Positions 38,882 to 48,352 of a DNA stretch of 64,000 bases are shown here, in pieces. A program made the position numbers and the translations under genes. The notes below the pieces were generated by a model. The model had not been told where the DNA came from. It worked only from the letters and a program-made list of their open reading frames with translations, and ran no database searches. The DNA is from an uncultured Selenomonadaceae bacterium (GTDB lineage: Bacteria; Bacillota; Negativicutes; Selenomonadales; Selenomonadaceae), in the NCBI GenBank assembly GCA_902778455.1, contig CACYXR010000017.1:60794-124793 (forward strand), given 5' to 3'. How positions within the stretch are numbered: the stretch's first letter is position 1; each line of letters starts with the position of its first letter.

Positions 38882-39043
38882 AAGAATCACTGAACAAGTT
38901 CCGCCGCACTCCTGCCGGTTCTTTTCCGGCTGTCGTTGTCCAAGACTTCTCAACGCAGCGATGCTGCGCCTTCGATATCTTTTCCTGTTCAGCCGAAAAT
39001 TCTTCTTCGGCAGGAGCACAACTTAACTTATTCAGTGATTCCT
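38882..39043. repeat. MITE-like structured repeat, copy 2 (~162 bp, inverted relative to copy 1)
   Basis: TIRs AAGAATCACTGAACAAGT / ACTTATTCAGTGATTCCT. Internal long-range pairing CTCCTGCCG / CGGCAGGAG. The reverse complement aligns with 20429-20604. Confidence 0.6.
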
Positions 39044-39294
39044 AAAAACTCCAAAATCAGGAACACAGCGGGTGGCAGTCCACGCGCCGGCGTGTTGGTG
39101 TCAAATTGAAAAAACCAATGCGCACGTCCGGCATCACCACCGGAGCGGCGCCGCCCGTGCCCGCTTTCTCGCCATATTTACGAGTGAATCCGGCTCAACT
39201 CGCCTTTCCCCTGTGGTCAAGGGGTGCCATGGCTGTAATGCACAATGAATTTTTCATATCTGTGCATCCCCTGTGCTTTTCCCTGTCCTGACTT

Positions 39295-39948
39295 TTATGT
39301 TATTCTCTTATTCCACCAATATCCAATCACTGCGTACATACCGATAATACCCGCGAGAATGAGCAAAAACATGGCGGAGGGAAGCTTTGCCGCTGCCGTG
39401 CCGAAAATGTGCTTCATCATCAGACGGTCGCCGATCCGGTGCAAAAACGAGCCGACGACGCCGAGGAGGAAAACGGCGGCCAGCGCGAACCGCGTGCCAA
39501 CGAGATAACGCCGTGAGGAAACATCCAAACCTCGCCAGCGCACGAACCTCGTCCAGAGCGCCGTCCAGTGCAGCCCTAAGTGAAGTCCCGAAAAAATCAG
39601 CATCCAATAGGAAGCCGCGACATGCGCCTGATGGGCGACAATGCTCCGCTGCCAGGCAAGACCGAACACGCCCGGAAAGAGGCGGTTCGCGATGGCAAGA
39701 CCGCTGATGAACGCGACAGCGAAGGAAACCGCCAGTCCCACATTGACTATGAGCGAAGCCGCCCGCCGGACGTTCCACGCGCCCCGACCGAGAGAGGAAA
39801 ACCATTTCCCGTTCCACGCGAGGTGAAGCAGCACGAAAACTCCCATGACAACGCCCAGCGCCTCATGCAGCGGCTTCGGCAAGACCTGAAAGCCCATCAC
39901 CAACAGGAGAAGCGCAAACAGCAGCCCATCCAATAATACCCGTTTCAT
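39295..39948 (-). CDS. DUF4405-like integral membrane protein
   Basis: ATG at 39948 (MKRVLLDGLLFALLLLVMG...). Five to six TM segments with several conserved-looking His residues. Last gene of the exported-enzyme cluster. Confidence 0.65.
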   Translation of the reverse strand: MKRVLLDGLLFALLLLVMGFQVLPKPLHEALGVVMGVFVLLHLAWNGKWFSSLGRGAWNVRRAASLIVNVGLAVSFAVAFISGLAIANRLFPGVFGLAWQRSIVAHQAHVAASYWMLIFSGLHLGLHWTALWTRFVRWRGLDVSSRRYLVGTRFALAAVFLLGVVGSFLHRIGDRLMMKHIFGTAAAKLPSAMFLLILAGIIGMYAVIGYWWNKRIT

Positions 39949-39967
39949 ATCGCCGTGCCGTCGTCTT

Positions 39968-40510
39968 TTATTTCGCGTAGCCGAGGCCGGAAATCCACGG
40001 CGCGACGTCGCCGGCGTCGTTGGCCAGGATTCCGTCGCCGATGGTCGCTCCCGCCGCTGAGGCACGGATGCTGTCGAGGCTGTCTGAGAGCGGGCTGCCG
40101 CCGCTGGTGGCGAAGGGAATCACCGTCTTTCCGGAGAAATCGTAGCTTTCCAGGAAAGAGAGCACGATCATCGGCGCGTCGTACCACCAGATCGGGTAGC
40201 CGACAAACACCACGTCGTAGTCCGCCATGTTCTCCACCCGCCCGTCGATCCCCGGGCGGGCGTTGTTGTTTTTCTCCGCTTTCGCCACGTCAAGGCACTC
40301 GTCATAGGCCGGATACGGCGTCACAGGCACAATCTCGAACAGGTCGCCGCCCGTCTGCGCGGCAATCTCTTTCGCTACGTTCGCAGTATGTCCCTGATAG
40401 GAAAAATAGGCTACGAGGATCTTCCCGCTGGCCTCCGCCCGATGGGAGAACCCAAATCCGCAGAACGCCGCCGCGAATATCGCGGCACAAAACAAAAACA
40501 TTGTTTTCAT
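39968..40510 (-). CDS. flavodoxin-like protein with N-terminal signal peptide
   Basis: Signal MKTMFLFCAAIFAAAFCGFGFSHRAEA, then ILVAYFSYQGHT... and GYPIWWYDAP, typical of the flavodoxin_4 family. SD GGAGG before the ATG at 40510. Confidence 0.8.
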   Translation of the reverse strand: MKTMFLFCAAIFAAAFCGFGFSHRAEASGKILVAYFSYQGHTANVAKEIAAQTGGDLFEIVPVTPYPAYDECLDVAKAEKNNNARPGIDGRVENMADYDVVFVGYPIWWYDAPMIVLSFLESYDFSGKTVIPFATSGGSPLSDSLDSIRASAAGATIGDGILANDAGDVAPWISGLGYAK

Positions 40511-40538
40511 GATATAAAGCCTCCTTATCCTGCAATCC

Positions 40539-40979
40539 TTATTTCGCCGTCTCGTCCGCGTAAACTTCCTTCGCCATATTGAAGGCCGCCCACGCTTTCG
40601 GCCAGCCTGCGTAGAAGCCAAGCTGGGTGATGATCTCCGCCATCTCGGCCTTCGTGACGCCGTTCTTCTTCGCCGATTCGATATGGTATTTCAGCGAGCT
40701 GTCGATGATGCCGCTGGCCACCAGCGCCGAGACCGTCACGATGCTGCGGTCGTGCAGGGAAAGCACGTCGTTCTTCGACCAGACCTCGCCGAAGAGGATA
40801 TCGTCGTTATATCGCGCGAAGTCCGGCGCGAAATCGCCGAGCCTGTCGCGCCCCGCCGTCTGCACTACCTTTACCGCTTCCCGCTGTTCAGCCATTTCCG
40901 CCACTCCCATCGTCATGAAATTCGTCGTGAAAAACATTCCCGCCGCCAATACGGCCGCTGTCCATTTCTTTGTGTTCAT
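40539..40979 (-). CDS. carboxymuconolactone decarboxylase (CMD) family protein with signal peptide
   Basis: Hydrophobic N-terminus MNTKKWTAAVLAAGMFFTT..., then the CMD core ...LSLHDRSIVTVSAL...EIITQLGFYAGWP. Confidence 0.78.
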   Translation of the reverse strand: MNTKKWTAAVLAAGMFFTTNFMTMGVAEMAEQREAVKVVQTAGRDRLGDFAPDFARYNDDILFGEVWSKNDVLSLHDRSIVTVSALVASGIIDSSLKYHIESAKKNGVTKAEMAEIITQLGFYAGWPKAWAAFNMAKEVYADETAK

Positions 40980-40996
40980 GTTGATTCCTCCGTTCT

Positions 40997-41746
40997 TTAT
41001 TTCTGCAGGCCTTTCGTGCTCAAAACGATATGGGCCGGACGGTTCGTGATTTCCCTCGCCGCCGTGAACATCGACGAAAGCCCCCGCAGATATTCGCCGT
41101 AGGCTTCGGACTCCACATAGCTTTGATAGGCCGCCTCGTCCCGATAAATCTCCATCGTGTGGATGATATTCGGCGCGTCGTGCTCCGCCGTCACGAACAT
41201 GCCCATGACGCCCGCGTCGTCCCGCACGGCGCGGACCGCTTCCGCCGTCGCCAGCTTCTGGTACTCGGCGAGCCGCTCCGGGCGCACCTCATAGCGGTGC
41301 ATCAGGACTACCGTGCCGACGCCCTCCGCTTTCTGCTCCAATGCGATGCCGTTGGCCTCAAGGATTTTCAGGCTCTTGAGGATGGGCAGCCGCTCGGCGC
41401 GGTAAGCCTGGAATCCTTCGCTGCTGGCGTGGATGCGGTACGCCTCATAGCTCTCGTAAATCTCGATCAGCCGCAGCACGTCGGGATTTTCCGCGTCGAT
41501 GCCGCCATAGAGCGCGTAGGTTCCGGCTTCGCCTGCCGCCGTCGGGCCGACAGTGCGCGCCGCGACTTCGCCCATCTTCGCCATATCGCCGGGCGTGGAT
41601 TCCACCACCGCCCAATGAACCATCGGCATATTCCCCTCCGGCGTGCGGATCGGATGCGCCGACACAACCGTACTTGCCATCATGATTCCTCCCAATACAA
41701 GCAAAGCAAGTTTCTTTTGCAACTGTCTCATACGCCCCTCCGTCAT
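40997..41746 (-). CDS. tandem ABM (antibiotic biosynthesis monooxygenase-like) domain protein with signal peptide
   Basis: Signal ...KKLALLVLGGIMMASTVVSA. Two ABM-like halves (EIYESYEAYRIHASSEGF; EIYRDEAAYQSYVESEAY). Confidence 0.7.
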   Translation of the reverse strand: MTEGRMRQLQKKLALLVLGGIMMASTVVSAHPIRTPEGNMPMVHWAVVESTPGDMAKMGEVAARTVGPTAAGEAGTYALYGGIDAENPDVLRLIEIYESYEAYRIHASSEGFQAYRAERLPILKSLKILEANGIALEQKAEGVGTVVLMHRYEVRPERLAEYQKLATAEAVRAVRDDAGVMGMFVTAEHDAPNIIHTMEIYRDEAAYQSYVESEAYGEYLRGLSSMFTAAREITNRPAHIVLSTKGLQK

Positions 41747-41940
41747 TTCTTTTCCGCCATGAACTTCGGCAGCAGCTTTCCGCCGACGCCCCAGTTTTCC
41801 GGCTCGTTTTCCTCGATCAGCACATAAAACGCCGACGCGGGCATTCCCAGCGTTTCGCTGGCGACGCGGGTGAAGCCCTCCACCAGTTTCTCCTTCTGCT
41901 CCGTCGTCGTTTTCGCGGTCTTCATTTCAATGAACGGCAT
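41743..41940 (-). CDS. 4-oxalocrotonate tautomerase family protein
   Basis: 65 aa, N-terminal MPFIEMK (Pro-1 after Met removal), typical 4-OT length. Confidence 0.8.
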   Translation of the reverse strand: MPFIEMKTAKTTTEQKEKLVEGFTRVASETLGMPASAFYVLIEENEPENWGVGGKLLPKFMAEKK

Positions 41941-41955
41941 TGTATTTTCCTCCTG

Positions 41956-42996
41956 TCATGCAAGCAATTTTTTCGCGTTTTCCGTATAGAAGCGGCCCGA
42001 CTGCCCGCGCTGGGCCAGCACTTCGTCCAGCGCTTTCTTGCGCTGCAGCACGATGGGCGCCAACACATACGGGTAATCGCTGCCATAGACGATATGCTCC
42101 TCGTCCGTGATCCGAAGCAGCATATCCATCTGGTCGGGCGTCGGGTCCCCCGCGAGGTCGAACCAAAGATGCTTCATGCCCGCTTCCATATCGACGGGTT
42201 CCATCCTGCCCATGGCCGAAAGCAGGCGGAACATGCCGCCCGCGCGGCTCTTCATATAGGGCAGGAACGAGCCGCAATGAGGCACTACGAGACGGATGCG
42301 CGGGAATTTTTCCAGCGTCCGGTTCGCCAGAAGATTCACCACCGCCCGGGTGGTGTCCGCAGGATATTCGTAGAGCGCCATGACGCCGCCCGTGACCACG
42401 CCCTCCCTCGGCAGGCTCCGGGCAGGGCTCGGATGCAGGATTACCAGCGCGCCGCGCTTGTCCAATTCTGCAAAAACGGGGTCAAAGCTCGGATCGCCGA
42501 GATAGACGCCGTCGCTGTTCGAGGCGACCTTCACGCCCAACGCGCCGAGACGCTCCGTTGCGTAACGGATTTCCTCCAGCGCGCCCTCAACGTCGGGCAG
42601 GGGCAGCGCCGCGACGAAGCCGAATTTTTCCGGATGCTTTCGGCTGAACGCGGCGTATTCCTCATTGACCGCCCGCGTGACCTCGCGGGCAAGTCCCGCG
42701 TCGCCATGATAGGTGTGCGGCGTCGGCATGGACAGCACGGCGTAGTCGAGACCCGCGTCCTCCATGAATTGCAGATGCGCCTCTTCCGACCACTGCGGAA
42801 TGGGAAAGCCTTCCTCCGCCACGACGTCGATGCCGAGGCGTTTCAGCCCGTCGACATAAGACGGCAGCATCGCGTGGGCGTGAAAATCCACGCGCCGCCC
42901 CGTCATTTTCGCCGCCGACGCCATGGACGGGAAGCGTCCCAGGAGCGCCGACGCCGCCGCGGCTCCGGACAGCTTCAAAAAATCACGTCGTTTCAT
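41956..42996 (-). CDS. Amidohydro_2 (ACMSD-like TIM-barrel metal hydrolase/decarboxylase) with Tat signal
   Basis: Twin-arginine motif MKRRDFLKLSGAAAASALLG. HxH motif (VDFHAHAM). C-terminal YGSDYPY. Confidence 0.8.
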   Translation of the reverse strand: MKRRDFLKLSGAAAASALLGRFPSMASAAKMTGRRVDFHAHAMLPSYVDGLKRLGIDVVAEEGFPIPQWSEEAHLQFMEDAGLDYAVLSMPTPHTYHGDAGLAREVTRAVNEEYAAFSRKHPEKFGFVAALPLPDVEGALEEIRYATERLGALGVKVASNSDGVYLGDPSFDPVFAELDKRGALVILHPSPARSLPREGVVTGGVMALYEYPADTTRAVVNLLANRTLEKFPRIRLVVPHCGSFLPYMKSRAGGMFRLLSAMGRMEPVDMEAGMKHLWFDLAGDPTPDQMDMLLRITDEEHIVYGSDYPYVLAPIVLQRKKALDEVLAQRGQSGRFYTENAKKLLA

Positions 42997-43008
42997 ATCT
43001 TGTTTCCT

Positions 43009-43683
43009 TTACAGATTCGCGCCGATTTTCCGCGCCATCTCGCCGAACTCCGAGCGCTCCGCCAGCGAGCGCGAGCCGCAGCCGGTACCGAGTACCTGCC
43101 CGACGTCCGTCCAGTTCATATAGCGCACTAAGGTGTCGTAATGGGCGGCCAGCGCCTGGAAGGTCCAGTCCGCGCTGTTGTACGCCGTGGAAATCAGCAT
43201 CGCCTTCTTGCCGTTCAGTTTCCCGGTGCGGGAATAGAAACGGTCCACCACGATCTTCAGCTGCGCCGACATGCCGTAGTAATAGAGCGGCGTCGTCAGC
43301 ACCAGCATATCCGCTTCCAGCATCTTCGGCATCAGCTTCGTCTCGATGGCGTCCTGGAAAATGCAGGGGCCGTCCATGCCGCACTTGTCGCAGCCGCGGC
43401 AAGGATGTGTTTCCTCGTTCGCCGCGTCGAACACGAAAATCTCATGCCCCGCGCTTTTCGCGCCCTCGATGAACCGCTCCGCGAGATAGATAGATGTGGA
43501 CTCGTTCTTCGGATGCGGGCTTGATGTCACAACCACGATCTTCATTTGTTTTCCCCCCGATACGCTGCCCTTCGCGGGCGGCGTGATTTTCTTTTCCGCA
43601 GGCGCGGCGGCGAGACCGCAGCCGCTCAGGAAGAGCGTCAGCAAGCCTATGCCGCTCACCTTCAGGAATTCCCGCCGATTCAT
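43009..43683 (-). CDS. flavodoxin-fold NAD(P)H-dependent FMN reductase / iron-sulfur flavoprotein-like, Tat-lipoprotein signal
   Basis: MNRREFLKVSGIGLLTLFLSGC (RR motif plus lipobox), then KIVVVTSSPH and Cys cluster CRGCDKCGMDGPC. Confidence 0.78.
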   Translation of the reverse strand: MNRREFLKVSGIGLLTLFLSGCGLAAAPAEKKITPPAKGSVSGGKQMKIVVVTSSPHPKNESTSIYLAERFIEGAKSAGHEIFVFDAANEETHPCRGCDKCGMDGPCIFQDAIETKLMPKMLEADMLVLTTPLYYYGMSAQLKIVVDRFYSRTGKLNGKKAMLISTAYNSADWTFQALAAHYDTLVRYMNWTDVGQVLGTGCGSRSLAERSEFGEMARKIGANL

Positions 43684-43692
43684 GCTCTCACC

Positions 43693-44241
43693 TTATTTCA
43701 GCTTCGCGTATTCCGCCTCGTTCACCGGCTCCAGCCATTCCGTCGAGACGCCTTCGCCCGACAGCATGATGGAAAGATGCTGCATCATATTGTTCGGCCC
43801 CGCGCCGTGCCAGTGCTTCGTACCCTCAGGAATCGTCACCACCGTGCCGGGCAGGATCTCCTTCGGCTCCTCGCCCCAGATCTGATAGTAGCCGCGCCCC
43901 GATTCGCCGACGAGAATCTGGCATGTGCCATGATGGATATGCCAGTGGTTGATGGTGCCTTTCGTGAAGGTCACGTTCGCCACGCCGATCTTGTCGCTGG
44001 CCAGCGGCGCGAGGAAGGTCTTGCCCGTAAAATATTTATCGTAGTTGACGTTCGGCGAGCCGATGGCAAAAATCGTTCCGGCTTCTTTGCCAAGCTCCGC
44101 CTTGACTTCCTCCACGGCGGGATAGCCTTCCACCGCTTCCGCCGCGTCGGCGACGCCGCCGAAGGTCGTCAGCCCCGCCGCGAGAACGCCTGCCAGCGCC
44201 ACCAGTTTCATTTTCTTCGTCCAATTCTTCATTTTCTTCAT
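43693..44241 (-). CDS. cupin domain protein with signal peptide
   Basis: ATG at 44241. Signal MKKMKNWTKKMKLVALAGVLAAGLTTFGGVADA. Cupin motifs (HWHIHHG...; GTKHWHGA). The maximal ORF to 44574 is not credible. Confidence 0.8.
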   Translation of the reverse strand: MKKMKNWTKKMKLVALAGVLAAGLTTFGGVADAAEAVEGYPAVEEVKAELGKEAGTIFAIGSPNVNYDKYFTGKTFLAPLASDKIGVANVTFTKGTINHWHIHHGTCQILVGESGRGYYQIWGEEPKEILPGTVVTIPEGTKHWHGAGPNNMMQHLSIMLSGEGVSTEWLEPVNEAEYAKLK

Positions 44242-44492
44242 CGTCCCTTCTGTTGTTTGCCGTTCTCGGCCTGCCATATCAAATAATCGACCTTGTCCAA
44301 AACCTGCTGTCGTTGGTGCAGCTCGTCCATGAGTCGCCCCCGCTGTCCCCGGAGGATTCGCGCCCGCGCCGCCTCCGTGCCGGAGCGCGTCGAAAGCTCC
44401 ATATAGCGGCGAACGTCCGACGGATCGAATCCCGCGCTTTCCAGCAGCGAAAAAAGCCCCGCGTTCGCCTCCGTTTTTTTCAACCACATCAC
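44238..44492 (-). CDS. small hypothetical protein, translationally coupled to the cupin gene
   Basis: 84 aa. ATGA overlap with the cupin start. Helical C-terminus (RILRGQRGRLMDELHQRQQVLDKVDYLIW). Function unknown. Confidence 0.45.
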   Translation of the reverse strand: MMWLKKTEANAGLFSLLESAGFDPSDVRRYMELSTRSGTEAARARILRGQRGRLMDELHQRQQVLDKVDYLIWQAENGKQQKGR

Positions 44493-44669
44493 GCTCCTTT
44501 GTGTCGCCCAAACGAAAAATATGGACGAAGCCGTTCTTATCGGCTTCGCCCACAGTATAGCGTCTTCGATGCAAGTTTGTCTAATACCTATTTTTTATGC
44601 GCATCTATGCTTTGAAAGCATGGACATCAGGAAGCACATAGAAGAAACAGTCGTCCGGGGCTGGCGCTT

Positions 44670-45032
44670 TCATTGCGCTGTCGGCAGCGGCACAATGCCC
44701 AAGGTTTTTCCAAGCGGTGCAAGCATTTTTACAAGCGTGTCGATTTGGGGGCTGATGTGCCCTCTTTCTATTCGCGCGATTACCGGCTGTTTCACGCCGC
44801 TTAATTCTTCCAGTTTCCTTTGTGTAATTCCCTTTTCGTTCCGCGCTTTGATAAATTCGCCGATCAGCGCCACGCGCAGATTGCTGGCGGCGATTTCCTC
44901 CGGCGTGAAAATCTCCTTTTCAAATTCGTCCCATTCATCTTTTCCCGTAATGATGCCGCGTTTTTTCGCATCCTCCAAGCAAGCCTGCGCATGCGCAATA
45001 GCTTTCTCATACTCTTTATCCATTGTCTTCAT
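44670..45032 (-). CDS. higA: XRE-family HTH antitoxin (HigA-like)
   Basis: C-terminal HTH: GITQRKLEELSGVKQPVIARIERG. Overlaps the upstream toxin gene. Confidence 0.75.
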   Translation of the reverse strand: MKTMDKEYEKAIAHAQACLEDAKKRGIITGKDEWDEFEKEIFTPEEIAASNLRVALIGEFIKARNEKGITQRKLEELSGVKQPVIARIERGHISPQIDTLVKMLAPLGKTLGIVPLPTAQ

Positions 45033-45378
45033 TCCTTTCCTTGAACTCCTTCAAAAGGCGTTTTGCTTTCTCGATTTCGGCGAGCGGCGTTTTTCTCGTT
45101 TTCTTAACGAAATGGCTGATCAGAAGAAAACTTTTTCCCGTCCACGCCGCAAAAAGGACTCTGTCGCTCAAAGGACGCAGTTCCCATATGTCTCCGCCAA
45201 GTTTCTTCATATATGGCTCCCCGATTGTTGTACCGTACACTTTTAATGCCTTGATATAGTCCTTGATTTTATTCGCTCTTATGCGACTGTTCTTGTCACG
45301 CTTACTTGCAAGTTCTCTGATAAACTCACGAACTGGTTTTTCGCCTTTCTTGTCGGTGTAAAATTCGATAGCGTACAC
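45016..45378 (-). CDS. higB: RelE/ParE-superfamily toxin, HigB/Gp49-like
   Basis: IEFYTDKKGEKPVREFI...GDIWELRP...RVLF...HFVKKTRKTP, typical of the Gp49/HigB family. GTG at 45378 preceded by AGGAGG; the maximal ORF reaches 45423. Confidence 0.75.
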   Translation of the reverse strand: MYAIEFYTDKKGEKPVREFIRELASKRDKNSRIRANKIKDYIKALKVYGTTIGEPYMKKLGGDIWELRPLSDRVLFAAWTGKSFLLISHFVKKTRKTPLAEIEKAKRLLKEFKERNEDNG

Positions 45379-45563
45379 TGACGGGCCTCCTTTCTGCCTA
45401 TATGATAACTTAAAGATAATCAATAGTCAAGACATGGCAACGCATGGAGCATCGGGAGCTGCCATGCGAAACTGAAATGATCCTGTGCGTGTCAGGCGCC
45501 TGCCGATTCATTAAAAACCTGTAATGTGGCGAAAAGTGACGCCTACACCATGCCGGAATTATG

Positions 45564-45572
45564 TGCTATAAT
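45564..45572 (+). promoter_or_regulatory. extended -10 element (TGCTATAAT) upstream of the DUF362 gene
   Basis: TGnTATAAT match about 45 nt upstream of the ATG. The -35 is weak. Confidence 0.35.
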
Positions 45573-45617
45573 CAAACAATAGGATTACTTCTCAACCAAG
45601 AACAGGAGGGCATCTTT

Positions 45618-46730
45618 ATGAGCGAATTGACACGACGGGACTTCATCAAACTGGCTGGCGCGGCGGCGGCCATGACCGCGCTGCCGGGCTATGCCGGAGC
45701 GGCGGAAAAGGACGAGGGCGGCCGGGGCTCGGCGAAAAAGCCGGGCACGGGCGGCGACAAGTATCTTCCTTACGACAAGCGGACCGGCCCGGAGGCTTTC
45801 GTCTATTTCACCCGAGACCTTTCGGCGGCGGGGCTCCTGAAAGTCTTTGACCGCGTGAAGGGCGCTCTCGCCGGGAAGATTGCCGTGAAGCTCCATACCG
45901 GCGAGCCGGAGGGGCCGAACATCATTCCCCGCCCGTGGGTCAGGGAGCTTCTCGCCGAGCGCCTGCCGAACGCCGCCATCGTCGAGACAAACACCTACTA
46001 TAATTACGGGCGCTACACGACGGAAGACCACCGGAAAACTCTCGAGACGAACGGCTGGACCTTCGCGCCCGTGGACATCATAGACGCCGAAGGCACCGCG
46101 CTGCTTCCCGTGCCCCACGGCAAATGGTTCAAGGAAATGTCCGTCGGCAAGAATCTCTTGAACTACGATTCATTCCTTGCGCTGACTCATTTCAAAGGGC
46201 ACACCATGGGCGGCTTCGGCGGCTCGGACAAGAATATCGGCATCGGCTGTGCAGACGGCCGCATCGGCAAGAAATGGATCCACACCTATGAAGGCAAAGA
46301 TCAGTGGAGCATCAGCAAGGAAGAATTCATGGAGCGCATGACTGAATCCACCCAGGCGACGATTTCTTACTTCGCCCATAAGATCGCTTTCATCAACGTC
46401 ATGCGCAATATGAGCGTTTCCTGCGACTGCGAAGGCGTAAACGCCGCCCCGGTAGTGACGCCGGACGTCGGCATCGTCGCGTCCTTTGACATCCTCGCGG
46501 CGGACCAGGCCTGCGTCGACATGGTCTACGCGCTGCCGGAGGAAAGCCGTCACGACCTCGTGGAACGCATCGAAACCCGCCACGGTCTGCGCCAGCTTTC
46601 CTACATGAAGGAGATGGGCATGGGCAACGATCGGTATCACCTGATCGACCTCGACAACGGCGACGCCGAGATCACTGCCAAGGAAGCCGTCAAAGGCATC
46701 AGCGGCAAATGGGTTTACGACGGGCAATAA
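45618..46730 (+). CDS. DUF362 domain protein with Tat signal
   Basis: ATG at 45618 preceded by AGGAGGG. MSELTRRDFIKLAGAAAAMTALPG twin-arginine signal. DUF362-like core (IAVKLHTGE...). Confidence 0.72.
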   Translation: MSELTRRDFIKLAGAAAAMTALPGYAGAAEKDEGGRGSAKKPGTGGDKYLPYDKRTGPEAFVYFTRDLSAAGLLKVFDRVKGALAGKIAVKLHTGEPEGPNIIPRPWVRELLAERLPNAAIVETNTYYNYGRYTTEDHRKTLETNGWTFAPVDIIDAEGTALLPVPHGKWFKEMSVGKNLLNYDSFLALTHFKGHTMGGFGGSDKNIGIGCADGRIGKKWIHTYEGKDQWSISKEEFMERMTESTQATISYFAHKIAFINVMRNMSVSCDCEGVNAAPVVTPDVGIVASFDILAADQACVDMVYALPEESRHDLVERIETRHGLRQLSYMKEMGMGNDRYHLIDLDNGDAEITAKEAVKGISGKWVYDGQ

Positions 46731-46746
46731 GAAGAGCGAATAGAAA

Positions 46747-46789
46747 ACGTCCCGGTTCTGCGATGAGCAATGAACCGGGACGTTTTTTA
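46747..46789 (+). terminator. rho-independent terminator
   Basis: Stem ACGTCCCGGTTC / GAACCGGGACGT followed by TTTTTT. Confidence 0.8.
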
Positions 46790-46812
46790 TCAAGGTGCTT
46801 CTCTATCGAACA

Positions 46813-47685
46813 TTATTCCACGAATTTTTCCCGCAGGAAATCCAAAAACCTGCCCGCCGCACCGAAAGTCGGCTGGAAACGTTTCCAGGCAAGAACCACG
46901 GTGGAGGTCAGCGGCGGGTCGAGGGGACGGAAGGCGAACCGCGCCGGATCGTAATGACACACCGCACCCTCGATGGTGATGGCGTCGGCGAAGCCGCCTT
47001 CCACCAGCGGCAGTGAATTGTCCACAAGGTTGTGGCATGCGATGATCTGTAGTTCTGTCATATCTCCCAGCCAATGCTCGACCTCCTTGCGGACGGAAAG
47101 ACGCCCCGTATTGATGAGCCGCCGCCCCGCGAGATCCTGCCGCCGGATTTTCTTCTTTTTCGCCAGCGTGCTGCCCGCCCGTGTGAACACGCCCCAGCGC
47201 TCCTTCGTCGGCAGGCGGAAATAATCATAATGGGCGACGTCGATGGGCTCCTGCAAGAGCGCGAAATCCAAAAGACCCGCGTCCAGACGTTCGCGAAGCG
47301 TATCCGCGCTGTTCGTATAAATCTCATACTTCACCTTCGGATAGCGCAGGGAAAACTCCTCCAGCGTGCGGATGACCTCCGAGCCCGCCGCATAGACGCC
47401 GCTGCCGATAGCCAGCGTCCCGCCCACGTCCTCGGCGTGGTGGAAATCTGCCTCGATGCGGTCAACGAGCGCCACGGCTTCCTCCGCCCGATGGCGAAGC
47501 ATCACACCCGCCTCGGTCAGGGCCAGCCTGCGCCCGCGCTCGAAAAGCGGCTGCCCAAGCTCCGCCTCCAGCTCAGCGAGCTGCCGTGAAAGCGTCGGCT
47601 GCGTCAAATGCAGCGATTCCGCCGCCCGCGAAATATTCTGCTCCCGCACCACCGCGAGAAAATACCGAAGCACCCGAATCTCCAT
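46813..47685 (-). CDS. LysR family transcriptional regulator
   Basis: MEIRVLRYFLAVVREQNISRAAESLHLTQPTLSRQL HTH plus a LysR substrate-binding domain. The maximal ORF reaches 47706. Confidence 0.88.
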   Translation of the reverse strand: MEIRVLRYFLAVVREQNISRAAESLHLTQPTLSRQLAELEAELGQPLFERGRRLALTEAGVMLRHRAEEAVALVDRIEADFHHAEDVGGTLAIGSGVYAAGSEVIRTLEEFSLRYPKVKYEIYTNSADTLRERLDAGLLDFALLQEPIDVAHYDYFRLPTKERWGVFTRAGSTLAKKKKIRRQDLAGRRLINTGRLSVRKEVEHWLGDMTELQIIACHNLVDNSLPLVEGGFADAITIEGAVCHYDPARFAFRPLDPPLTSTVVLAWKRFQPTFGAAGRFLDFLREKFVE

Positions 47686-47800
47686 CGTATGCCGCTTCTC
47701 CTTCACATCGGTCCTGTCTTTACGGAAAGCGCAAAGTCTAGGGGAATCTGACCGTTAGGAGCGGCCTCGACTTGAAGCCGCTCCTTTATACGTCATAGTA

Positions 47801-48352
47801 TCATTTAATGATATTCACAATGTTGTCTTCCGATGACAGGACCCTCGGGGGAGCCGCGGCAGCGCGCTTGTAGCCGAAAGCGCCGATACAGAGCGGCTGA
47901 TAGCCCTGCGGGATACTAAGATGAGAAAGGAGCTTTTTCCCTTCCTCCGATTTGAACGTCTCCGCCGCCGTGGAGAGCCAGCAGGCGCCGAGACCCGCTT
48001 TTTCCGCGACCAGCATCATGCTTCCGAAGACCATGTGCGCCGCGTCCTCAACAAATTTCTCGCTTTTGCTCGCCGAAATGATCAGCACGATGGGAAGGTC
48101 GGCGACCATCTGCGCCGAGGCGCGGGAGGCGTCGCCGCTTTTTTCCTCGACGAGCCGCTCGTACAGCTCGTGGAAACGGCGGAGCAGTCCCCGGTTTTGC
48201 AGGACCGTGAAATGCCATTCCTGATTGCTCGGCGCGTTGGAAAGATTTTTTCCTTCCTCCAGGATTTCCATGATCGATTCGTCGCGTATCGGGCGCGAGT
48301 CGAACTGCGTCGTACTTCTGCGCATCAGCACATTCCGCAGGATATTGTTCAT
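47801..48352 (-). CDS. nitroreductase family protein
   Basis: 183 aa. RRSTTQFDSRPI... N-terminus, typical of nitroreductases. Confidence 0.75.
   Translation of the reverse strand: MNNILRNVLMRRSTTQFDSRPIRDESIMEILEEGKNLSNAPSNQEWHFTVLQNRGLLRRFHELYERLVEEKSGDASRASAQMVADLPIVLIISASKSEKFVEDAAHMVFGSMMLVAEKAGLGACWLSTAAETFKSEEGKKLLSHLSIPQGYQPLCIGAFGYKRAAAAPPRVLSSEDNIVNIIK

Follow-up and report, generated by a model that had tools for sequence, protein, structure and literature searches.

We analysed a 64,000-nucleotide stretch of DNA from an uncultured Selenomonadaceae bacterium (hereafter the window, whose numbering is used throughout), in which nine co-directional genes occupy positions 39295-44492 of the minus strand. 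They encode a DUF4405 membrane protein, an iron-sulfur flavoprotein (Isf)-like flavin mononucleotide (FMN) reductase, a Flavodoxin_4 protein and a group of accessory proteins, and searches with Pfam and NCBIfam bore out the arrangement and the families that had been assigned from the letters alone (the original prediction). Our best reading, held with moderate confidence, is that the operon is a LysR-controlled periplasmic redox module, in which DUF4405 supplies electrons to Isf and Flavodoxin_4, and these serve a variable set of exported enzymes that probably detoxify plant-derived redox-active compounds. The DUF4405/Flavodoxin_4 system itself has been known since 2024; new here is a periplasmic form free of the flavin transferase ApbE, in which Isf is a lipoprotein of the twin-arginine translocation (Tat) type.

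The operon comes from a Selenomonadaceae metagenome-assembled genome (MAG) of the bovine rumen, 2.6 Mb in size and 100% complete, with DNA matches in bovine rumen metagenomes. Selenomonadaceae are diderm Firmicutes. An Omp85/BamA gene was found in the host genome, and homologues of the window proteins bear the names Schwartzia, Selenomonas, Anaerovibrio and Mitsuokella; the Gram-positive, Clostridia-like setting that had been assumed was therefore abandoned. Since the host is diderm, exported here means periplasmic, with the Isf-like protein tethered to a membrane. The original prediction relied on a Tat system and saw no flavin transferase near the operon. The gene tatC is present in the genome with tatA adjacent to it, and no match to ApbE (PF02424) was found in the complete host genome.

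Six of the nine genes had been predicted to encode export signals, and on this count motif reading, a classifier and conservation among orthologues agreed. Signals of the general secretory (Sec) type were found on the cupin, the tandem-ABM protein, the CMD protein and Flavodoxin_4, a Tat signal on the Amidohydro_2 protein, and a Tat signal with a lipobox on the Isf-like reductase. The four Sec signals each have a positive n-region, a hydrophobic core and a small-x-small cleavage site, placed from their n-h-c regions at ADA/AE (cupin), VSA/HP (ABM), GVA/E (CMD) and AEA/SG (Flavodoxin_4). At the N-terminus of the Isf-like protein (MNRREFLKVSGIGLLTLFLSGC) the twin-arginine motif RREFLK is followed by L-S-G-C, which fits the lipobox pattern [LVI][ASTVI][GAS]C. 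The Pfam model TAT_signal matched Amidohydro_2 and the DUF362 protein encoded nearby, and TIGR01409 concurred. Exactly these six of nine products, and DUF362, were called signal-bearing by a crude classifier against a background of 17.8% of ~2000 self-called genes, a rough figure because the codon-usage gene caller mis-called some genes in G+C-rich DNA. The binomial probability of at least six signals among nine genes was ~0.002 on the assumption of independent genes, and operon genes are not independent. Shine-Dalgarno motifs (AGGAGG, GGAGGA, AAGGAGG, AAGGTGAG and similar) were present just upstream of all six signal-encoding starts; as read from the sequence, the sole weak one stands before DUF4405.

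Conservation is stronger evidence for the signals than the classifier count. The RR motif was present in 93 of the 120 closest Amidohydro_2 homologues, and the rest look as if the gene had been called from a start within the signal. The Tat motif (RG in one of them), the lipobox and the cysteine motif were kept in each of the 16 full-length Isf orthologues. N-terminal signals were likewise kept in orthologues of the cupin, ABM, CMD, DUF362 and Flavodoxin_4 proteins at 35-95% identity, and the DUF362 orthologues keep RRDF[IM]K. The type of signal varies among orthologues (Sec signal-peptidase-I type, lipoprotein, Tat-lipoprotein or membrane anchor); that the type is swapped while a signal is kept fits selection on localisation. 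Two weak points had been named in advance, namely that relatives might lack the N-terminal extensions and that the true starts might lie downstream. The relatives keep the extensions, and strong Shine-Dalgarno motifs stand at the upstream starts. The six products very probably lie outside the cytoplasm. An in-frame 'IRRLYIM' upstream of Flavodoxin_4 was considered as a hidden Tat motif and rejected, since the AAGGAGG ribosome-binding site accounts for its two Arg codons, no start preceded by a Shine-Dalgarno motif lies upstream, and the homologues begin at the same Met. In a Pelosinus orthologue of the Isf lipoprotein (L063, 8404-9084), which begins MNRGEFLK, RG replaces RR in the Tat motif.

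The membrane protein matched DUF4405 (PF14358) with 41.1 bits against a cut-off of 26.7, and six hydrophobic segments were read from its sequence. Five histidines (H28, H42, H109, H123 and H127) were invariant in 21 sequences, and the central four-histidine pattern is present. When the topology is read by the positive-inside rule, H28 and H109 come to lie towards the outer side of the membrane and H42 and H123/H127 towards its inner side, a layout that probably forms a two-haem transmembrane wire with one outer and one inner site. A purified DUF4405 protein, an Oscillospiraceae homologue, binds haem b (Huang et al. 2024, mSystems 9:e00375-24), and with the five invariant histidines this makes the membrane electron conduit of the original prediction plausible. 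According to the same study, DUF4405 co-localises with apbE and flavinylated Flavodoxin_4 and adjoins extracytosolic Flavodoxin_4 and FMN_red proteins, some of which are ApbE substrates, recognised by residues inserted between beta1 and alpha1 or by an extended C-terminus (Huang et al. 2024).

Flavodoxin_4 was assigned with 138.8 bits (PF12682, 1e-40), and its FMN loops are kept (YFS-x2-G-x-T, GYPIWW and FATSGGS). It has no flavinylation insertion, because it aligns gap-free across beta1-alpha1 to 3KLB and 4ICI, which hold FMN non-covalently; a flavinylation motif (Dxx[ST]GA[ST]-like) was found in none of the exported products of the operon. The lack of ApbE, the Sec signal and the lack of an insertion together imply that flavin is loaded non-covalently after export, which is what the original prediction had held a Sec-exported flavodoxin to need. 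Its statement that such folds are typically cytoplasmic was wrong for Flavodoxin_4: among the nearest 150 representatives (50%-identity clusters), ~122 have a signal-like start (a lipobox in 63, a Sec-type signal or membrane anchor in 55, a Tat signal in 4), and many of the other 28 are fragments. Many of the representatives P0192-P0340 are large exported multi-domain proteins with two Flavodoxin_4 domains and segments that look SLH- or Ig-like by eye. About 20 Flavodoxin_4 domain instances among the nearest representatives carry insertions of the D..(S/T)(S/A)AS type that resemble published flavinylation sites.

In sibling genera the Flavodoxin_4 protein adjacent to DUF4405 carries a Tat-lipoprotein signal (MNRREFLKMGGMSMMAMVLGGCG), as fits a cofactor-bearing periplasmic protein, and these genera thus appear to solve flavin loading differently, via Tat. 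The Flavodoxin_4 proteins of L079-L084 have a Tat signal and lipobox nearly identical to those of the Isf lipoprotein, followed by a Ser/Ala-rich tether.

The Isf-like protein matched Pfam FMN_red (PF03358, 1.3e-17). Its cysteine motif (CRGCDKCGMDGPC) is invariant or nearly so, and all 18 homologues have CX2CX2CX5C. Of the solved structures that of the flavone reductase FLR (7D38) comes nearest, but it matched weakly, with E 5e-7 across 87 residues; in a PDB sequence search the solved archaeal Isf structures had no detectable sequence similarity to the window protein. A 61-residue open reading frame (ORF) of Selenomonas ruminantium (L004, 13106-13291) fuses the Isf Tat-lipoprotein signal to the segment with the cysteine motif (…FFLTGCDKCGMDGPC…) and seems to have arisen from a second Isf copy by deletion.

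Conservation of the nine-gene order, raised in the original prediction, was not borne out. The conserved unit is a core of LysR, the small first protein, Isf, DUF4405 and Flavodoxin_4, around which the accessories are shuffled; the order of the nine genes is a local variant. In four genomes of the genus (G007, G046, G147 and G140) the genes recur but their order is shuffled, and an additional DUF362 or aldo-keto reductase gene is present. Other Selenomonadaceae genera have a compact form, in which LysR is divergent from a small ORF followed by the Isf lipoprotein, DUF4405 and Flavodoxin_4 with a Tat-lipoprotein signal. The order in Pelosinus is MerR, then cupin, CMD, Flavodoxin_4, DUF4405, a Flavodoxin_4 lipoprotein and an Isf lipoprotein; Sporomusa has a similar set, with signal-bearing cupin and CMD proteins and a full MerR regulator. 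A Desulfovibrionaceae MAG has LysR, cupin, Isf, DUF4405 and DUF362, and in Ruminococcus DUF4405 adjoins a sulfatase-modifying-factor/Flavodoxin_4 fusion and FMN_red. Amidohydro_2 with a Tat signal was found in larger mixed clusters of S. ruminantium and Anaerovibrio under TetR, LysR or MerR regulators. These clusters hold signal-bearing esterases, a CMD-cupin fusion, Isf and Flavodoxin_4 lipoproteins and DUF362, together with cytoplasmic aldo-keto reductases, YCII, thioesterase, DJ-1 and metallo-beta-lactamase-fold proteins. Roughly half of the 20 DUF4405 loci of the family whose surroundings were examined have Flavodoxin_4 or Isf within ~3 kb.

Three loci have features of their own. In one same-genus locus (L044, genome G140), five Flavodoxin_4, two DUF4405 and two FMN_red genes lie within ~11 kb and form a local expansion of the core. 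The Ruminococcus sp. fusion (L066, 7853-9145) is a 430-residue FGE-sulfatase and Flavodoxin_4 protein encoded directly after DUF4405. A 298-residue DUF4405 call of Sporomusa acidovorans (L064, 7001-7897) starts with a signal peptide and an N-terminal CMD part; this gene is either a fusion or a frameshifted pair.

A census of 151 genomes of the family found DUF4405 in 131 and ApbE in 78. Both occurred in 68 genomes, DUF4405 only in 63, ApbE only in 10 and neither in 10, and across these genomes there is no association between the two. In genomes that have both, the two are on separate contigs or a long way from each other, with no shared neighbourhood among the matches listed. Within the genus, ApbE was found in one of 11 genomes.

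The accessory products were compared with solved and characterised families. The cupin fell just below the Pfam Cupin_2 cut-off (27.0 bits against 27.2, E 3.6e-6); a hydroxynitrile (mandelonitrile) lyase-like NCBIfam equivalog scored 101.8 against a cut-off of 140, and that activity is not implied. It aligns with TM1010 (2F4P) and the Mn-dependent GtHNL (4BIF) and keeps the metal motifs WHxH..Q and HWHGA; in S. ruminantium a CMD domain is fused to the cupin. Amidohydro_2 (PF04909, 7.7e-33) is closest in the PDB to 2F6K, an uncharacterised Lactobacillus protein (4e-54), followed by LigW, ACMSD, the gamma-resorcylate, dihydroxybenzoate and salicylate decarboxylases and the LigJ hydratase; the motifs DFHAHA, ILHPS, VPHCG and GSDYP, candidates for the metal ligands HxH, His and Asp of this fold, were read from its sequence. 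The 4-OT protein matched Pfam Tautomerase and exceeded the NCBIfam DmpI cut-off (87.4 against 70). Canonical 4-OT binds dicarboxylates with Arg11 and Arg39; here Pro1 is present, and Thr11 and Val39 were read at those positions. A 4-OT gene directly follows Amidohydro_2 also in L039, L045 and L090, and with one gene between them in L008. The ABM protein has two Pfam ABM stretches, with 3KKF and the tandem 3MCS as PDB relatives. The CMD protein matched Pfam CMD, 4G9Q (2e-39) and 2AF7, and its best relatives are of PcaC type, below the equivalog cut-off. It has no cysteine and hence no CxxC of AhpD-type peroxidases, so an AhpD-like peroxidase role was rejected. A PDB sequence search found no relative of DUF362. 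The nearest solved accessory relatives act on aromatics (the LigW/ACMSD/resorcylate decarboxylases, PcaC and flavone reductase), and these resemblances point loosely to aromatic or phenolic substrates, as would suit an inhabitant of the rumen; they prove nothing.

The genes and control elements are listed in Table 1. As had been predicted, the gene for the Tat-signal DUF362 protein lies beyond a toxin-antitoxin pair. Beyond DUF362 lie the LysR gene and a nitroreductase gene.

Table 1. Genes and control elements of the operon region in window numbering.
Feature	Position	Strand	Characteristics
Small ORF	44238-44489	-	83 residues; ATG at 44489 probable start, GTG at 44492
Cupin	43693-44241	-	ATG overlaps the TGA of the small ORF (ATGA)
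Isf-like FMN_red/Flavodoxin_2	43009-43683	-	RREFLK Tat signal, lipobox LSGC, motif CX2CX2CX5C
Amidohydro_2	41956-42996	-	ACMSD/LigW-type metal enzyme by similarity, Tat signal
4-OT tautomerase	41743-41940	-	No signal
Tandem ABM	40997-41731	-	Probable start ATG 41731, preceded by a Shine-Dalgarno motif; another ATG upstream at 41746
CMD	40539-40979	-	Sec signal, PcaC-like
Flavodoxin_4	39968-40510	-	Sec-type signal, PF12682
DUF4405	39295-39948	-	Six-helix membrane protein, PF14358; refined start 39948
Promoter-like TAGACA-18-TATACT	44583-44554	-	Followed by 5' leader hairpin and U-run, 44554-44520
Palindrome ATGCT-N5-AGCAT	44607-44621	n/a	T-N11-A type; candidate LysR box
HigB/HigA cassette	44623-45538	-	HigB Gp49-like 45016-45378, HigA HTH_3 44670-45032 (Pfam)
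DUF362	45618-46730	+	Tat signal; Pfam DUF362 and TAT_signal; divergent from the operon
LysR regulator	46813-47706	-	Pfam HTH_1 and LysR_substrate

Homologues of the LysR protein (37-96% identity) adjoin the module in 11 of the 12 loci examined and also in L050, L052, L058 and L065, and LysR is the probable regulator of the module. It had no specific NCBIfam equivalog, and its match to OxyR was weak, far below the cut-off. The promoter hexamers TAGACA/TATACT are invariant in the genus, and the hairpin of the 5' leader (-28 kcal/mol, z -3.7) is conserved there; with its U-run it could be an attenuator or an mRNA stabiliser. The palindrome was kept in four genomes of the genus, and its use as a LysR box is putative. 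An Rfam scan of 39000-48000 at E up to 1 found nothing.

The toxin-antitoxin pair had been described as inserted, and the comparison with relatives upheld this. The HigBA cassette is absent from G007 and G046 of the same genus, where 120 bp separate the operon from DUF362, and a rumen metatranscriptome contig joins 44622 to 45577 without it. In both genomes the 120-bp stretch has GTATTAGACA once more, in inverted orientation, and this copy may be the -35 region of the DUF362 promoter. Because the cassette replaced this stretch, the regulation of DUF362 may be altered here. In four rumen and gut RNA libraries we found contigs 90-97% identical to most of the cluster, among them one of 657 nt that links the 3' part of Amidohydro_2 to ABM across 4-OT; these contigs are short and stem from related strains, whose expression they show, some libraries may hold DNA, and the contigs do not give the operon structure of this strain.

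The first gene of the operon encodes a small protein for which no Pfam family, no helix-turn-helix and no Pfam MerR match was found; NCBIfam gave a weak match restricted to positions 53-113 of NmlR, in the C-terminal half of that regulator. Its AlphaFold2 model (predicted local distance difference test score, pLDDT, 88.8) has helices at 2-18, 23-33 and 39-81, that is two short helices and one of 43 residues, resembling the C-terminal two-thirds of MerR. The model superposes on the MerR regulators 3GP4, 5D90, 5CRL and 1Q05 with template-modelling scores (TMq) of 0.66-0.70 and Foldseek E-values of only 0.03-4, and we read the protein as a MerR-like dimerisation part without a DNA-binding head. 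The family comprises 232 clusters, all unnamed and all from Selenomonadaceae where the host is named, and in several genera its gene is the first after the LysR-divergent promoter. That the ORF, first measured as 84 residues, is a MerR pseudogene left by the toxin-antitoxin insertion was rejected: eight of the genus's 10 further genomes, some of them lacking the HigBA cassette, have it conserved at 86-93%, and in other genera the module likewise begins with a related small ORF. The family motif is LRRHRRxLxxxLHxxQxxLxxxDYMI, with relatives in L079-L090 and L050; members from other genera have 3-4 cysteines, the window copy none.

Elsewhere in the genome, at ~93000-122000 of contig C4, lies a second island of paralogues without DUF4405. 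It contains two Flavodoxin_4 lipoproteins, FMN_red, 4-OT, a Tat-lipoprotein DUF362, a cyclophilin-like lipoprotein and several LysR genes.

In the mechanism that we favour, DUF4405 would be an inner-membrane di-haem b cytochrome that takes electrons from the menaquinol pool or a cytoplasmic donor and passes them to two periplasmic flavoproteins unable to use NAD(P)H there. The Isf-like FMN/[4Fe-4S] reductase would be lipid-anchored and exported folded via Tat; Flavodoxin_4 would leave the cell unfolded via Sec and take up FMN non-covalently after export, without ApbE. With the accessories, which comprise exported enzymes that are cofactor-free or use a metal (Mn-type cupin, PcaC-like CMD, tandem ABM, ACMSD/LigW-type Amidohydro_2 and Tat-exported DUF362) and a cytoplasmic 4-OT, the flavoproteins would transform redox-active or electrophilic small molecules before these enter the cytoplasm, the most likely substrates being plant-derived phenolics, quinones or flavonoid-like compounds in the rumen. 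The headless MerR-like small protein probably takes part in regulation; it may be the partner of a regulator, a sensor or something else. A gene for a fumarate reductase-type cytochrome b subunit (contig C2:39468-40010) points to a quinone pool and haem use, and because it is present the organism is taken to use haem; cytochrome bd was not found in a whole-genome search. The direction of electron flow and its partners, the route of flavin loading, the regulation and the substrates are what we infer from these observations. From the original prediction of an extracytoplasmic module for electron transfer or for processing quinones, aromatics or peroxides, the location stood and the electron conduit is plausible. 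The peroxide idea fell, having lost its best candidate, the CMD protein without cysteine, which resembles PcaC-type decarboxylases.

Several observations weigh against this reading. About half of the 20 DUF4405 loci have no recognisable flavoprotein neighbour, so DUF4405 need not always serve flavodoxins, and with gene order and accessory content varying so widely the accessories may act independently and not as one pathway. DUF4405 was nearly uncovered in the four metatranscriptomes. Ferrochelatase (PF00762), an expected source of haem for DUF4405, was not found in a search of the whole host genome. The likenesses to enzymes of aromatic compounds are remote, that to FLR being the weak one given above. 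The 4-OT protein lacks a signal, and the signals of the others were called from motifs, conservation and a classifier of our own making. Finally, Isf has, after a G-rich stretch (GGGGGGAAAA, 43546-43560), an internal Met46 from which a cytoplasmic isoform may start. The segment KGSVSGGKxM is conserved across orders, and the alternative to a second start is that it is part of the fold.

The alternative that survives best, which we still judge unlikely, is respiratory: a terminal reductase branch would lead from menaquinol through DUF4405 and Isf/Flavodoxin_4 to an external organic or humic/quinone acceptor, with redox balance or energy as the benefit. Huang et al. (2024) note that extracytosolic flavoprotein systems are often tied to electron-acceptor use. 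The core occurs widely among fermentative anaerobes, and the fumarate reductase-type subunit means that a quinone-linked chain exists. However, the module has no large catalytic reductase subunit and its accessory genes vary greatly across genomes. The LysR/MerR control with cupin, CMD and ABM looks like a stress or xenobiotic regulon, as do the esterases, aldo-keto reductases, DJ-1 and metallo-beta-lactamase-fold enzymes in relatives.

Next comes the view, in our opinion improbable, that the operon is a loose collection of shuffled, unrelated enzymes under a common regulator, in which DUF4405 does not feed the flavoproteins and the exported flavodoxin-fold proteins bind flavins or small molecules without redox turnover. 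The unconserved order, the accessory sets that differ between genomes and the DUF4405 loci without a flavoprotein neighbour (about half) all favour it, and without ApbE the loading of a Sec-exported flavodoxin is uncertain. It does not explain why DUF4405 adjoins Isf, Flavodoxin_4 or both across genera, Negativicutes orders and other phyla, nor why the FMN loops are conserved relative to the FMN-bound 3KLB and 4ICI and the Fe-S motif never varies among Isf homologues. Export through Tat, which Isf uses and in sibling genera Flavodoxin_4 as well, moreover implies that the cofactor is already bound.

Last among the improbable readings is oxidative stress, with the module removing O2, H2O2 or organic peroxides in the periplasm of a strict anaerobe and Isf acting as the reducer of oxidants. 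The Isf-type cysteine motif and the FMN_red fold are present, and the Isf of Methanosarcina is said to reduce O2 and H2O2, which would support such a role. LysR-family regulators include OxyR, a point in its favour that is offset by the weak match here; many other LysR regulators match the LysR protein at least as closely as OxyR does. The CMD protein, lacking cysteine, is not an AhpD-type peroxidase, it is not obvious what the cupin, the decarboxylase-type Amidohydro_2, 4-OT or ABM would do against oxygen species, and the archaeal Isf structures have no detectable sequence relation to the window Isf. Scarcely credible is an artefact in which translation truly starts downstream of the signals and the products stay in the cytoplasm: Met46 of Isf with its G-rich stretch and the database Amidohydro_2 calls that begin within the signal would suit it, but strong Shine-Dalgarno motifs at the six upstream starts, extensions and lipoboxes conserved across genera with interchangeable signal types, matching Pfam and TIGRFAM Tat models and a Tat system in the genome all stand against it.

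The periplasmic redox module thus remains the reading that we prefer. Extracytoplasmic redox chemistry is now explained largely through ApbE-flavinylated proteins, and this locus and its relatives pair a cytochrome with flavoproteins without ApbE. They raise the questions of how non-covalent flavoproteins of the periplasm or surface obtain and keep their flavin, and of what exported members of 'cytoplasmic' families do there, and they may bear on the tolerance of rumen and gut bacteria to dietary tannins, flavonoids and quinones. Newly defined are an unannotated family of small MerR-like proteins that lack the DNA-binding head and a class of iron-sulfur flavoproteins that are Tat-lipoproteins. 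A far-reaching extension, which we put forward tentatively and regard as doubtful, is that anaerobes of several phyla own an ApbE-independent extracytoplasmic system, in which a di-haem DUF4405 cytochrome powers non-covalent flavoproteins, either sent through Tat with their cofactor in place (Isf and some Flavodoxin_4) or given free flavin after Sec export, and these drive a changeable set of exported, cofactor-free enzymes (cupin, CMD, ABM, Amidohydro_2 and DUF362) against dietary plant phenolics or quinones before the inner membrane is crossed, with the headless MerR-like protein as a novel type of co-regulator alongside LysR.

Haem b membrane proteins that feed a periplasmic redox enzyme are known from MsrPQ (YedYZ) of E. 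coli and from the PepSY/FoxB-type cytochromes. Alike are the haem b protein and a Tat-exported periplasmic enzyme without access to NAD(P)H; the family of the membrane protein differs, and the partner in the operon is an (Fe-S) flavoprotein, not a molybdoenzyme. The quinone and electrophile regulons of Firmicutes (MhqR, YodB and CatR of B. subtilis, and MerR regulators of the NmlR/AdhR type) comprise small reductases, dioxygenase/cupin-type enzymes and hydrolases and answer to quinones and carbonyl electrophiles. They resemble the operon in being enzyme sets headed by a regulator, and the MerR/NmlR-like element corresponds to the small protein here and to a full MerR in Pelosinus and Sporomusa. 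Those regulons are cytoplasmic and driven by NAD(P)H, whereas the operon combines mostly exported enzymes with a membrane cytochrome. A precedent for flavin uptake after Sec export is Bfe/FccA of Shewanella, where a Sec-exported periplasmic protein takes up flavin non-covalently; the cofactor there is flavin adenine dinucleotide (FAD), supplied by a dedicated MATE exporter.

The Isf of Methanosarcina thermophila is a cytoplasmic [4Fe-4S] protein with an FMN_red/flavodoxin-like fold and a compact CX2CX2CX4-7C motif. The operon Isf shares the fold, and its cysteine motif falls within the same spacing; it differs in having a Tat signal, a lipobox and a linker. FLR is reportedly NADH-dependent, and such a dependence would not work in a periplasm. 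The alignment of the operon Isf with this nearest solved relative, from Flavonifractor plautii (PDB 7D38-7D3B; Yang et al. 2021, PMC7862272), covers the Cys-rich segment. FLR is a gut-bacterial enzyme that acts on plant polyphenols; it has 310 residues, and a signal peptide is not mentioned for it (Yang et al. 2021, PMC7862272).

The closest known system is that of Huang, Meheust, Barquera and Light 2024 (mSystems 9:e00375-24; bioRxiv 10.1101/2024.03.13.584918), in which PF14358, PF12682 and PF03358 stand side by side. Those clusters and the operon are alike in their extracytosolic flavoproteins, conserved central histidines and presumed transmembrane electron transfer. The cupin, CMD, ABM, Amidohydro_2, DUF362 and small MerR-like proteins and signal peptides are not mentioned by Huang et al. 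(2024). In contrast to their clusters, the genome of the operon has no apbE and the genus almost none, Flavodoxin_4 carries no insertion, and the C-terminal flavinylation extension is missing from FMN_red. This reductase is an Isf-type Fe-S protein with a Tat-lipoprotein signal, and the host is a diderm with a periplasm.

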